64,000 bases of DNA, from assembly GCF_006345805.1 (NCBI RefSeq), contig NC_043000.1, positions 52,328,001-52,392,000 on the forward strand, written 5' to 3'. Shown here piece after piece: positions 11,405 through 53,177 of this stretch. Source of the stretch: Octopus sinensis. Taxonomy: Eukaryota. The position numbers were made by a program, and so were the translations under genes. Every line of letters starts with the position of its first letter. Within the stretch, counting starts at the first letter, position 1. Below the pieces are notes generated by a model that did no database searches, had not been told where the DNA came from, and saw nothing but the letters and a program-made list of their open reading frames with translations.

Positions 11405-11544
11405 GTAGTATATATACATATGTATATATGTATATATACATGTGTATATATGTATATATACATGTATATATATATATATATACAAGGTCCATATTAAATC
11501 TTAACACATTTGAAGGATATCTAATTTAAAAACAATGCTAGACT

Positions 11545-11754
11545 AAAAATACTATTGCTTTATGCCTGTCCTTTTCCAAAATTTCGGCCAACCTATACCC
11601 CTACATCTAGTGAGTCATCCCGACCTGTATCCTTTCCTTACTTCTTTTCACCCTTTTGTAATCTACCTTCCAGTTTTTCTCTATTCTACTTGCAGCTTCC
11701 CACCTTTTCCTTCCTTCTCCAAGCACTTACCTTCTTTCAGTATTATACACACAA

Positions 11755-11820
<66 letters not shown>

Positions 11821-12155
11821 GCACATCATTATAGGTACATTACTGATAAGATTACTCAATTGGTCTATTGATCAGTTGAGTAAGATTGAACGACCTAAAA
11901 GAAATTAATGCTACTTTCGTCCGAACCATTTCTCGTTATAACAAAGCAGAACGCTGAAGAAATGGTGAGTGCATGGGGGAGGGAGGAAACATTAAAAGAT
12001 GCAAGTAGAATAGATAGAACAGGAAGACAGGTTACAAAAGGGTGAACAGTAATAAGGAGATGATAGAGGAAGGGTTCACTTAATAAAAGCAGTCTTATAC
12101 GATGGCCAAAATTTGGGAAAGGGTCAGTCATAAAACATTAGTGTTTGTAGTCAGG
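11545..12155. repeat. Diverged inverted repeat (arms about 190 bp) around a (CA)n tract
   Basis: 11545-11730 versus reverse complement of about 11962-12155 share blocks such as ttcacccttttgtaa and tctattctacttgca; also visible as similar pseudo-ORFs 11562+ and 11895-. Confidence 0.75.
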
Positions 12156-12690: not shown

Positions 12691-12829
12691 ACTTTATATT
12701 ATACACAGACACACACATACACTCGCATACACACATGCACACCCACGCACGCACACACGCACATACATACACACACAATTATATATGTGATCATTTGTTA
12801 ATGCTTCAACAAGTTGAGAAGTATTCGAT

Positions 12830-13720
12830 CAGCTAAGAGAGTAAAGATTATCTTAAATCAAAAACCACAAATCTTCTTCCAAACAGCTTCCCAAGATTTT
12901 CTACTCTGACAGCAATACCGTTTGTCAAGATAGCAGCTTTACTGATAAAAATCTTCTCTATCTACCTCTCCTCTATCATCCACTCGTTGGAATAGGTCTG
13001 GGTAACTTTTCTGGTTTGCCCCACCACTTTTTTCCCTTAATATTAGGTAGGAGATTCTTGAACTTAGTAGATATTCGCCTCCCTAAACCCCATTGATGCA
13101 ATAAAGTCTTTAACAGACACGCAGTAAATTTTATCTTTTCTTGTCCTCCGAATGTTAATCCGTATATCAATAAGCATTGGACGTCTCAAGCCTGCCCTGG
13201 ATGCATATGTAAACATAGGGGATCGATGTAGCTTCCGTTTTTTGTGGGGCACAAGTTTCAGCAGTCTGCGAAAATAGTCGCGCAAATATCAGACGTTGTA
13301 TCGGAACCGCGGGAGGAGAGTTGGAGTTTGCATATCGCAACCATCTTTCTAGCTTGAGGTACTGTGTGTGGGGGGAGAGATATTCAGCAGCCATTTCGGG
13401 TTTTATCTGAGGATTTAGGGACGACGGAATCAATTTCGATGTCAGGAGGAGGGTCCTCTCTGTGTCCTGGCCCTGCATTGACGGGTCTTGAGGATGTTCA
13501 GTGTGTGTGCTTCAAAAACTGTAACCTCTGGTGAACGCATGGGTTGGAGGAGTGAGATCTTTTGTGTACACATTTCAAGAGGTGTATGCATCTTATTGGA
13601 ATTTGGAGGTGGGCACCGGACGCTTGGTGAACCATTGGCGTCTGGTTTACGTCTGTGGTCATTCTCTAGATGGACACTCAGCTGAAGGATCGCTGGGTGC
13701 CTTTCATGAATGGGAAAGTT
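12830..13720 (+). mobile_element. Penelope-like element 3' fragment (GIY-YIG), strongly A-to-G shifted
   Basis: Single frame 13243-13524: CGAQV..CIGTAGGELEFAYRNHLSSLR..YSAAISGFI*GFRDDGINFDVRRRVLSVSWPCIDGS*GCSVCVLQKL, then MGWRSEIF; matches the PLE pattern YKA.V..YIG.TE..FK.RY.NH.SSF..ST.LS..IW.LK..I.W.IL..PY.NGS..C.LC..EKL..LNKRSE. 5' boundary uncertain. Confidence 0.85.
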
Positions 13721-14115
13721 GTAGATATGCCAAAACGCCTCATTGGTACTAATGTATTTCCTCTGGCATACTGTGCATCTTCGTCATTTTTATTTATTAG
13801 CTAACTGCCATTATGCATAAGAGTCTATGATGTAGTATCTAAACTGTTGTTTATATATTTGATAGAGTTAAAAGAGTTGCAGTATCCAATTATTGACTCT
13901 GACTACCTGTACTCATCTTTGCTTCACTGTAGAATACTGATGCTCTACATCTACCGCGACTCCTTTTGTTGAGTGAGAACATCGTCCTGGGAAACTTTTA
14001 CGAAAATTGAAATGAGGATTAAATGAAAAAATGAGTTACGTGAATATCTTCACAAGAGTAATTGAAATAAATGGTGATTGTGGAACGCCCCACGCATGCA
14101 CAAACACACATACAT

Positions 14116-14148
<33 letters not shown>

Positions 14149-14295
14149 AGGAGTATCAAATATCAGATGAATTGGACGTGTGTGTGTGTGTGTGAGAGAG
14201 AGAAGGGGTGTCTTGTCATCTATACGTACATAAATAAATATGCATACATCTTTTTGTGTGTGTATATGAGAGAGACAGTGAATGCCACTTAGACA

Positions 14296-15104: not shown

Positions 15105-15505
15105 AGTCACGTGACAACTTGCTGGGGCTGCCGCTGGAGACTATGCGGTAGGTATTTAAAGGAAAACATTTGACAAGACAGTCAGTCACCGACTGACACT
15201 CGCTGATGATACATCGAAGAGGCCAGGGAATAGAAGAAAGAAGGAGAAAGAAGACATGCACCCAACACCAGAGCTGAAGACACCTCCGAAAGGGGGGTCC
15301 CCGCCACGTCAAAACGGTAGAGGAGTAGGGGCCGAAACCGGACGTGGTTCCTCCTGATGATGTCTTGAGGTAACTGGATCCTATAAAGGACCTGTTGTGG
15401 TAGCAGACCACGAAACACGGTTGTAATTCCTTATTTGATAAACAACTAGCAGTTACGATTTCATCCAGTACAGGAGGCCTATGTAGATGAAAGTCAGGCA
15501 ACATT
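15105..15505 (+). mobile_element. GC-richer LTR/pLTR-like island with several hammerhead half-motifs
   Basis: Sharp composition shift, TATTTAAAGG box, three CTGANGA and two hairpin-preceded GAAAC motifs within about 210 bp; family not identified. Confidence 0.4.
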
Positions 15506-48406: not shown

Positions 48407-49130
48407 CAAGGTGCAGTGAGTAAACTCTCATCTAAATTAACGCAGGAATGAAAATAACACTGACATCTTATTTTAACATATATATTTACTAAAATTACAT
48501 AAACATATCTTGAAATACTAAAGAGTAAATTTATTAAATAAAATTGCCATTGGCTTCAACCATGGCTTCCAGATGACTTCAGAATCTGTTACGACTCTTC
48601 TGGACGGTCTCCTTGATTAAGTTGGTGAATGTTGCCATAATCCCTGTCTAGAGTTCATCTTTGGTGTTACAAAGAGTTTTGTTGGTCTCTCGCTCAACTG
48701 CGCCCCACACATAATAATCAAGGGGGTTGAGGTCTGGGGAGTTAGATGGCCAGATAGTAGGTGGGATGTGGTCACAGAAATTGTTTGACAGCCGTGACTG
48801 TGTTTGCCTGTTTGTGTGGCATAGTGCAGAGTTCTGTTGCCAGTCGTGGGGTCTTCCAGCAGCCACCCTCTTGACCAAGGGCAACACTACCTCGTTCAGG
48901 CACTTGAATTAGGGCTCCGTGTTGACTCAGAGGCCGTGTGGGAAGATGATTGGAGGTTTAACGTCACCGTCGCTAGTGATCACTGTAAACACCATGATGT
49001 TGACTGGATGTTTGATGTTTATCAACCTCGATACATGTACTCATATATCACTGTCCTCGTATTGACAGCCATACTCTCTGAAATGTTTGTATTGAATCTT
49101 CCGGTGCGAATGCCGAACAGTACAGCACGT
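48407..49130 (-). mobile_element. maT (DD37D) transposon remnant, same family as 4368-5244
   Basis: ORF 48648-48887 WQQNSALCHT..IWPSNSPDLNPLDYYVWG with 37-residue spacing (second Asp mutated to Asn); TA-CAAGGTG end at 48405-48413. Confidence 0.9.
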
Positions 49131-50295: not shown

Positions 50296-50936
50296 CCTAG
50301 ATATCAAATAAAATAAAACAAATTTTTTACTTGTATAGCTCTGTCACTTCGCCTCCTGCTTTTACTCTGCCTCTATGATTTTTTCTCTCTTACCTTGTGT
50401 TTTGTCTGCCACCAAGCTTAGTAATGACACACATCATTCACTACTTTACGTTACATTTCTCCATATTTTATTTTAGTCATTATCTTTATAGAATGTAAAG
50501 TGTGACTGGAGATTCACGAAACAATACTCAAACATTTATATCGCCTATTATACCACATATTAAGGATGAACAATGATTGGGATTTGTACAGTTAATTCAA
50601 AAATAACCTAAAAGTAATGTGTGCATTTATGTGCAAGAAGATCCTTAGAAGTCAAAGCAGTAATTATTACAACACAGATTCACTCATACCAAAAATCATG
50701 TTAATTATTATATATGTGAGTGTGTGTATGCGTGTATATATGTGTAAATATATATGTGTACATATAGATGTATGGGTATATATGTATGTATAGATGTATT
50801 TGAATAAATGCATATGTGTATATATATAGATGTAAATATATAGAGATTTCTATATATGTATATATATATAGATATATATGTATATATATATATATATATA
50901 TATACATATACACACATCTATATATGTACATGTATA

Positions 50937-50993
<57 letters not shown>

Positions 50994-51044
50994 GTGTGTG
51001 TGTGTGTGTATACATATACACATATATATTTATATACATATACT

Positions 51045-53177
51045 AAATATACCAGAGAGAGGAAAATTTTAATGAGACGGCGTACAAAAATTTCAAATCG
51101 CCTAAACAAACAAATTGAAAGCAGTGAAAAGTCCCGCCTGAAAATAAAACTGTTGGAAATTGAAAATTGTCTGCAACTCTCCCATGAGAAGGAAAGAGCA
51201 GACAAAGAAGCCTGGGCTATAGACAACATAAAAACTAACCCCAGAGCTTTCTACAGGTATGCCAAAGAAACAGCTACGGTGCACTGTAGGATAGGGCCAC
51301 TCCTTGAAAAGGATGGCACACTCACAGGAAAACCAATGAGGGTAAGTGAAATACTGAATGAACAATTCAAGAGTGTTTTCACTCCACCCCTTGGGCATTT
51401 CCAAATCAGCAATCCAACTGACTTCTTTACCACTGCAGATATAGAATCAGAGGCGGCGACGATAAATTACATCGATATAAAGGAAGACGATGTAATAAAG
51501 GCTATAGATGAAATGAAAATAGACTCAGCTATTGGCCCCGATGGATTCCCGGCAATCCTCCTAAAAGTATGTAAGAGAGTCTTAGCAAGACCACTGCAGT
51601 TCCTCTTTCAGAGCTTCCTTGCAGCTGGCAAACTTCCAAGAAAACTGAAGGAAGGTAAAATATGCCCTATTCATAAAGGAGGTAGCAGAGCGGAGGCCAA
51701 GAACTACAGACCTATCTCTCTGACCTCACACATCAGCAAGGTCATGGAACGAATAGTCAGAAGGAAACTAATCACCTTCCTTGAAGAAAATGACTTGCTG
51801 CCTGACACCCAACATGGTTTCCGACCAGGAAGAAGCTGCTTAACTCAGCTCCTGCAGCACTATGACTGGGTGCTGAAACAACTGCTCAACCACTCAAATG
51901 TGGAAGTCATATATCTCGACTTCGCAAAGGCCTTCGATAAAGTCGATCATGGAATGATATGTCACAAACTGCGTGATCTTGGCATAGTTGGAAAACCAGG
52001 AGAATGGCTTCACGACTTTCTGAAGAATAGAAGTCAGGTGGTAGTAGCCAATGGGGCCACTTCCATTAGCACGCAAATAGTGAGCGGTGTTCCACAGGGC
52101 ACTGTTTTGGGACCACTACTGTTCATAATGGCCCTCTCAGACATGCCCTCAGCCACGCGGAGAGCCACGATCACAAGTTATGCAGACGATACAAAAGTTT
52201 CACAGGCAATACAGAACCCTGAAGACACTAAGCACCTGCAATATGAGCTGGACGAAATATACAAGTGGGCTGAAAAGAATAGCATGCAGTTCAATGCTGA
52301 AAAGTTTCAAGCTTTATACTATCAGCATGCAAAACTGAATGCAATACCCAAGGAATACGCTGGACCCGGAGGGATTGCAATCCCAGAGGCACAATCAGTG
52401 CGTGACCTGGGTATTCACATGAGTGATGACGCGACCTTTCATGTACATGTTGCTAAACTGACAATGAAATGCAGACGGCTGGCTGGATGGATTCTTAGAA
52501 CCTTTAGAACAAGAGAACAAGAAACCATGATGGTCCTCTGGAAGACACTTGTCCTAAGCCACTTTGACTATTGCTCTCAGCTATGGTCACCATCCAGTGT
52601 CAAGTTGATCACAGAACTTGAGGCGATCCAACGAAGCTACACGAAGAAGATAGCCTCTATGCAGAATGTAAGCTACTGGGAAAGACTCAAGAGATTAAAA
52701 TTATATTCCCTGGAGCGTAGGCGGGAAAGATATGCCATAATATACATCTGGAAGATCCTGGAGAGAAGTGTCCTGAACTTTGGCATCGAGAGTTACGCAA
52801 ATGCCAGAACTGGGCGCCACTGCGTGGTGCCTAGGACTCCAAACTTGCCATCAAGATGTAGGACAAAATTCTGTGATAGCCTGGGCTTCTGAGGCCCACA
52901 GCTCTTCAATATCCTCCCGAAGAACCTGAGAGACCTGCATGGGGTGGATACAGATGTCTTTAAAATGGAGCTGGATCTCTTCCTGTCAGGTGTCCCAGAT
53001 AAACCAACTTCACGGCAGGAGGGGCAGATGAGGGCAGCTGCATCGAACTCTCTCATGCACCAAATAGCAGTTGCTAGAAAGCCTCCATGAAGTGAAACCA
53101 AGTAGCAACACCAAATGGCGGTGCCCCAGCATGGCCACAGCTCATAAGCTGAAACTAGAATCAATCAATCAATCAAT
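51045..53177 (+). mobile_element. 5'-truncated CR1/L2-group (Jockey superclade) LINE
   Basis: RT ORF, short 3' UTR with stem-loop cagc-tcataa-gctg, (AATC)n tail; 5' end fused to a TA-rich tract; no APE domain. Confidence 0.95.
51072..52892 (+). pseudogene. LINE ORF2 reverse transcriptase (606 aa open; in-frame TGA, frame continues to 53090)
   Basis: [70 protein letters not shown]. The YIYI N-terminus of the 678-aa track ORF is microsatellite. Confidence 0.93.

Follow-up and report, generated by a model that had tools for sequence, protein, structure and literature searches.

The Penelope-like copy and its surroundings

The window, by which we mean the whole stretch of 64,000 nucleotides that was analysed, corresponds to positions 52328001-52392000 of contig C4 (G000:C4) in a 2.72-Gb assembly. 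The features discussed below are the following:

12790..12902, minus strand: inverted copy of the family's 3' tail on the 5' side of the insertion (reverse match to 23 family loci)
12926..13212, plus strand: 5' part of the truncated Penelope-like body, comprising the RT end and the linker (A>G near background)
13214..13215, plus strand: deletion of 22 nt compared with family copies, bordering the edited zone on its 5' side (one of six deletions)
13215..13645, plus strand: A-to-G hypermutated zone, sense strand, with an ADAR-like 5' neighbour bias (A>G 61/149, T>C 6/118)
13243..13524, plus strand: dead GIY-YIG endonuclease remnant within the edited zone, with two internal stops (from translation and the L107 alignment to P0001)
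13653..14200, plus strand: unrelated abundant repeat with its left end cut, overlapping the Penelope-like copy by 3 nt (29 loci)
50844..53175, plus strand: young LINE copy, itself not hypermutated (682-aa stop-free frame, RVT_1 E 1e-31)

Judged by its sequence, 12926-13655 (plus strand) holds an old Penelope-like retroelement copy that has been truncated. Searching the genome at the DNA and protein level retrieved relatives at 64-70% identity over long matches, and family copies are ~75-80% identical among themselves; exact-pattern counts (39 matches at a 10-14% match rate) suggest a family of a few hundred copies. A sequence-only reading of the window had called this element a Penelope copy with a GIY-YIG endonuclease, and the family bears this out: the open frame of one copy, L107, aligns to residues 488-678 of the 712-residue P0001 (32% identity, E 4e-27), an alignment that covers the last 190 residues of P0001 and contains YIG and YNNH-type motifs, and among the Atlas look-alikes of P0001 (score 0.96-0.99) the families HTH_animal, RVT_1 and GIY-YIG occur at shares of 18-100%. 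Direct Pfam scans, run on the window frame, L107 and P0001, yielded neither a GIY-YIG nor an RT match; an RT followed by a C-terminal GIY-YIG endonuclease is predicted indirectly, via the L107/P0001 look-alikes. In the window copy the frame from 13243 does read as an endonuclease, as had been proposed, but it contains internal stops at 13408 and 13489, and the LNKRSE-like stretch, which exists, lies in another frame after a 19-nt deletion.

Both 5' truncation and tandem or inverted pseudo-LTR copies were found. On the 5' side, family copies continue for 600 nt or more beyond the window copy, pieces on both strands occur in 22 of 88 family loci, and inverted duplications of 50-382 model positions are present at 12 of 82 distinct family places (382 in L110). 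In L107 (129-1961; G000:C5, ~29.788 Mb) the element is duplicated in tandem with a period of 1183 nt and the endonuclease frame is still open. L110 (1133-2310) holds a head-to-head inverted duplication of ~380 model positions; it was not flagged as hypermutated, and it offers a model for loci yielding fold-back dsRNA. The inverted tail at 12790-12902 in the window is hypermutated on neither strand: on the plus strand of 12765-12907 we counted A>G at 3/52 and T>C at 4/37, of which 1 and 2, respectively, lie inside the tail.

Relative to the family, the window copy has six deletions, three of them >10 nt. The 22-nt deletion at 13214..13215 may mark a template jump or may be a coincidence. At the other end, the final ~280 model positions of the element are missing at this locus. 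The 29 loci of the adjoining repeat match from 13648-13664 onward and diverge upstream, and the left part of that repeat is absent upstream of the insertion. As the unrelated repeat starts at 13653 and is itself left-cut, the 3' end of the Penelope-like copy was probably deleted. Elsewhere in the vicinity there is a 135-nt inverted repeat (11541-11675 and 12018-12152; 76% complementary, 342 nt apart) that has no match to the Penelope family profile, and hammerhead-like core words (CTGA..GA, GAAA) were seen by eye in two other repeats, at 15200-15350 and 13680-13740.

Sense-strand A-to-G hypermutation in the window copy

The base composition that had been estimated by hand for 13301-13500 (~20% A, 33% G, 18% C, 28% T) agrees with our recount (A 20.0%, C 18.5%, G 33.0%, T 28.5%), and the remark that the sense strands of other retroelements in the window are A-rich holds for a LINE ORF, with 33% A. 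Over 13243-13524 the family majority has A in 101 columns and G in 48; in the window copy these numbers are 64 and 84. The sequence-only reading had explained a series of codon changes by A>G, and the family alignment confirmed YK>CG (13244, 13247, 13248), Y>C (13298, 13475), K>E, T>A (13387), K>R, I>V twice and N>D (13480). The Y>C change at 13475 is A>G, yet the family is partly polymorphic there, with G in 11/61 copies. The change given as TE>AG is really VE>AG: its E>G is A>G, but the first residue is V in the bridge copy L107 and did not arise by A>G.

We compared the window copy with 29 paralogues that had been retrieved with an unedited relative as query and so were not chosen for likeness to the window (30 were fetched, and L112 was dropped as a tandem duplicate of L107). 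A>G was found at 68/203 positions in the window copy versus 290/5708 in the pooled paralogues (Fisher p 3e-34), the highest other copy reaching 9.8%. T>C in the window copy was 8/158 (p 6e-12), and the other classes were at background. With a larger panel restricted to 13215-13645, the window copy had A>G at 61/149 and T>C at 6/118 (p 1.5e-12), and the other copies pooled had 5.5% A>G and 4.5% T>C, with a maximum of 10.5% A>G among 69 others. The large excess of A>G that the sequence-only reading expected from a tabulation of substitution classes was thus observed, and the symmetry of A>G and T>C that would have spoken against it was not. In columns other than A, the divergence of the window copy (0.148) falls within the family range (0.10-0.19).

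The changes are clustered, as had been predicted. A change-point fit placed the edge at ~13220, with A>G at 7/86 before it and 61/147 after it, so that 41% of the As over 430 nt read G behind a sharp 5' edge. The hypermutation assigned to 13243..13700 is therefore real, but its limits had to be moved: the zone covers ~13215-13645 and begins before 13243, and 13653-13700 belongs to the different, unedited repeat (A>G 2/123 from 13653).

The outgroup P0001 agrees with the family residue at 13 of the changed codons, with the window at 2 and with neither at 13; as it sides with the family far more often than with the window, A is the ancestral state. The edited sites read G in only 191/3568 paralogue cells, which removes the objection that the family consensus is itself G-rich at these sites.

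Next to the changed As in 13215-13645 there is a strong 5' neighbour bias (T 19/29, A 30/55, G 7/29, C 3/25; chi-square p 4e-5), and thus the depletion of 5' G anticipated for ADAR is present. Background A>G in the other copies is ~5% for all four 5' neighbours, i.e. flat. The 3' neighbour had no effect (p 0.77; 3' G 7/18). That 5' C (3/25) is below 5' G (7/29) departs from the textbook order, and CpG decay accounts for little of it. A dense one-strand cluster of A>G changes, with 5' U and A favoured and G disfavoured, is the pattern of ADAR hyper-editing. The metazoan ADAR motif is described as favouring 5' U and A and disfavouring G (PMC9989829), and hyper-editing in invertebrates as lacking a 3' G preference (PMC5625713); the 5' bias and the flat 3' neighbour fit these signatures, as far as they are given in the two sources, and in this way support ADAR.

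High G alone could arise without any real mutational event, from an assembly artefact, a G-rich subfamily or GC-biased conversion, and, with TA as the most changed context, a two-strand TpA mutator could also be considered. For the window copy these explanations are refuted. Among 78 paralogues compared, the share of the 61 Gs that a copy carries never exceeds 14%, and the rates of T>C, A>C and T>G lie at background or close to it. At TA steps we counted 18 changes of the A to G and a single TA>CA, which rejects the two-strand mutator, and As preceded by A were heavily changed too (30/55). The Gs are also present in contigs of other samples. Eleven sequencing runs from six studies contain part of the stretch, seven of them hold at least half its words, and one may be the source of the assembly; no RNA run appeared among those containing the stretch, which says nothing about its expression. 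In the four runs examined (X2, X3, X7 and X8), two contigs of X2 cover 12868-13765 with 0 substitutions, one contig of X8 covers 12883-13796 with 23 differences and 6 gaps (the whole run showing only 12 G>A places), and X3 and X7 have no contig over the edited zone. The contig totals of X2 and X8, 2.3 and 1.5 billion letters, suggest that both are genomic DNA, their library type being unrecorded. As the Gs are found in the contigs of both X2 and X8, which come from other studies, they are common to samples with different organism labels, contrary to the expectation for Gs missing from DNA.

APOBEC editing of the retroelement was rejected as well, with G>A at 6/74, under the family background of 14.5%. 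Among 82 other distinct family places we detected no further hypermutated Penelope copy. A search pattern forcing two Gs matched only the window (sensitivity estimated at ~5%), and one-G patterns yielded no additional edited Penelope copy. What looked like clusters in L057 and L097 came from overrunning alignments; L089 (A>G 28/215, T>C 17/191) was rejected as an edited copy, being without neighbour bias. Other G-rich or C-rich stretches from a composition scan mostly resembled, by eye, microsatellites or unrelated sequence. The G-minus-A scan also flagged 48560-49040, which is G-rich and seemingly stop-poor and gives, from its letters, the impression of a possible DNA transposase remnant on the minus strand.

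Hypermutated copies of a young LINE family

The LINE at 50844-53175, whose motifs look CR1-like and which ends in an (ATCA)n tail, belongs to a very young and abundant family: of 1917 candidates 40 were scored, and 39 other copies among these have 99% identity. We searched for edited members with two patterns, each forcing two TA>TG changes, and obtained 2 and 3 matches at four distinct places. Three of these are clear in the assembly. L198 (G000:C13:19952727) has A>G at 73/173, T>C at 0 and 3 other changes; L199 (C10142:809) has A>G at 21/64 in its 5' 190 nt and T>C at 1; L200 (C3:5787329) has A>G at 20/54 and T>C at 0. In a 30-copy panel of the family A>G was 13/6940. All A>G changes in the three copies are on the sense strand, and the copies are cleaner cases than the window copy.

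Pooled over the three copies, the 5' neighbour was again biased (T 35/46, A 41/82, C 28/73, G 10/85; p 3e-12); 8 of the T sites were forced by the search patterns, and minus those T is 27/38. The 3' neighbour, with forced sites included, showed a weak effect (G 39/81, C 24/50, T 24/70, A 24/83; p 0.03). L198, L199 and L200 are 5'-truncated, edited up to the truncation point and unedited in the tandem tail, and all three lie inside TA microsatellites; L198 is edited over nearly its entire inserted length. L198 and L200 have 13 edited sites in common and differ at 20/33, which indicates independent events on separate molecules.

The fourth place, L202 (G000:C22:5962275), is an older copy found with the second pattern. 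It has A>G at 5/31 in one 100-nt bin near its 3' end, but also 17 G>A and 14 C>T changes over 1.3 kb; the patch is ambiguous, possibly a small edited duplex, and was excluded from the count. The antisense mirror pattern gave 0 matches in the young LINE, a weak control with one pattern used and ~2 matches expected under symmetry. As a rough inference, ~0.1-0.3% of the LINE copies are edited.

Could the same pattern arise from RT misincorporation, through an imbalance of the nucleotide pool or slippage beside a G, with no deaminase involved? Such errors would likewise be strand-specific and confined to the insertion, and the Penelope copy is without a 3' neighbour bias. However, the Penelope copy shows no preference for As beside G (5' G 7/29, 3' G 7/18), unlike what slippage would give, one 5' bias of T>A>C,G appears with two unrelated RT classes, and the young copies reach rates of 33-42% with almost no other error class. 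We consider RT error highly improbable.

Proposed origin: reverse transcription of an ADAR-edited RNA

The reading that we prefer, with a probability of roughly 0.85, is that an ADAR-hyperedited RNA template was reverse-transcribed into the germline genome and thereby gave rise to the window copy. Retrotransposition of a hyper-edited transcript had been suggested in the sequence-only reading; it is supported by the presence of an ADAR2-like gene and by the like signature in a second retroelement class. We infer the enzyme, the duplex partner, mobilisation in trans and the placing of editing before insertion. RNA of the element would pair with antisense element RNA, either as a fold-back from an inverted-duplication insertion or with a separate antisense transcript, and ADAR would turn about half of the adenosines in the duplex into inosine. 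The RT and endonuclease of an intact element could then use this RNA, by now coding-dead, as their template, either in trans or once translation had taken place, with inosine read as G. The insertion would land in the germline and age like its siblings, and a later deletion would remove the 3' end of the copy.

With respect to the enzyme, the genome encodes a predicted ADAR2-like gene: PF02137 matches were found, and the frame in L157 matches the human ADAR2 deaminase domain (E 2e-102). There are several A_deamin loci (L157-L162; G000:C6:2970442-2972870 and others), one of them ADAR2-like. In L158 the entire A_deamin domain is contiguous and carries six stops, resembling a processed pseudogene. 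In work on human L1, no editing of L1 RNA by ADAR1 was detectable in a transfection assay and the restriction of L1 was editing-independent, according to PMC5224506.

An antisense partner of the edited zone was found neither in the window nor in the 40 kb upstream; a template that came from another locus would not be expected to have a local duplex partner. It counts against a simple fold-back of the inverted 3' duplication that the inverted tail, which such a fold-back should take in, is unedited.

The unedited inverted tail, the unedited 5' 290 nt of the copy and the coincidence of the edit boundary with the 22-nt deletion could instead point to a chimera, in which ADAR-edited RNA was written into an existing copy (by cDNA-mediated gene conversion or RNA-templated repair) or the RT switched between edited and unedited templates. 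A partial duplex, however, yields the same boundary, and with three deletions >10 nt in the copy the coincidence is not strong. Shared derived variants point to no clearly different relatives for the two halves (best 5/18-5/20 and 7/34), a comparison that is uninformative, and the editing of L198 across nearly its full inserted length does not fit a chimera either. We regard a chimeric origin as improbable.

Adenine could also have been deaminated on DNA in place, during or after insertion, e.g. by ADAR working on the DNA of an RNA:DNA hybrid. Such hybrids can serve as ADAR substrates in vitro, with dA as the target, and from one old copy the timing of the edit relative to the insertion cannot be read. 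Against this, the changes follow the sense strand of the element in 4/4 clear cases, the antisense control produced 0 matches, the repeat next to the Penelope copy is unedited, and hypoxanthine in DNA is normally repaired. Moreover, if the first-strand cDNA had been edited within the insertion hybrid, the opposite pattern, sense T>C, should appear, and it is absent. We therefore give deamination on DNA a very small chance. As only sense RNA is the template for insertion, editing of the RNA before reverse transcription predicts sense A>G without antisense cases, as observed.

Implications

A-to-I editing is usually viewed as transient and non-heritable. From the copies described here we consider it probable that RNA edits repeatedly become heritable DNA in the germline through ADAR hyper-editing, with ~0.1-1% of insertions across retroelement classes coming from inosine-rich RNA, and that genomes thereby preserve datable traces of ADAR activity in the germline and of its sequence preference, an invertebrate-inclusive counterpart of APOBEC scars. 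It would follow that hyper-edited retroelement RNA occurs in the germline, remains insertable and arrives coding-dead. Assemblies alone would suffice to test if ADAR editing holds back the spread of retrotransposons, with what frequency in each family and on each strand, and how the neighbour preference of ADAR has changed over time; between the old Penelope copy and the young LINE copies this preference differs at 5' C and at the 3' positions. As the edited copies are at most 85-90% identical to their families, repeat annotation may mis-date or miss them.

Comparison with known systems

Our searches of open-access literature turned up no report of genome-fixed ADAR-edited retrotransposon copies, and an earlier mention in supplements or subscription papers is possible. 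With the Penelope-like elements with a C-terminal GIY-YIG described by Craig et al. (PMC8557442), as far as that account goes, the window copy shares the RT-linker-endonuclease order, 5' truncation and an inverted 5'-truncated copy adjoining the 5' end; it differs from them in being dead and hypermutated.

The closest parallel among deaminase scars is APOBEC 'DNA editing' of genomic LTR retrotransposons (Knisbacher and Levanon, PMC4866542; Zaranek et al., PMC2873906). In these descriptions, as here, the changes are of deaminase type, strand-biased, clustered, acquired in retrotransposition and fixed in the genome. The APOBEC cases consist of sense G>A changes, made via C-to-U on the cDNA, in LTR elements of vertebrates, and were reported absent from 19 invertebrate genomes (PMC4866542, the main text of which does not contain the word 'ADAR'), whereas here we observed sense A>G in non-LTR and Penelope-like elements and in an ADAR context.

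ADAR-linked A-to-G hyperediting has been described in RAV-1 and avian leukosis virus (Felder 1994; Hajjar and Linial 1995, both as cited in PMC8586724). The strand logic given there is the same, with RT copying edited RNA and inosine becoming G in DNA, but the avian cases are exogenous viruses and ours are endogenous copies in a host genome, one of them old and common to several samples. Transcriptome hyper-editing of repeat dsRNA (Porath et al., PMC5625713; PMC9989829) likewise shows, in these accounts, dense A>G, depletion of upstream G, a preference for U or A and a weak or absent preference for downstream G in invertebrates; it concerns RNA only, and here the pattern is in DNA. Deaminase-scarred retroelements are thus already known, and the ADAR-type scars in two element classes of one genome are a real addition to them.
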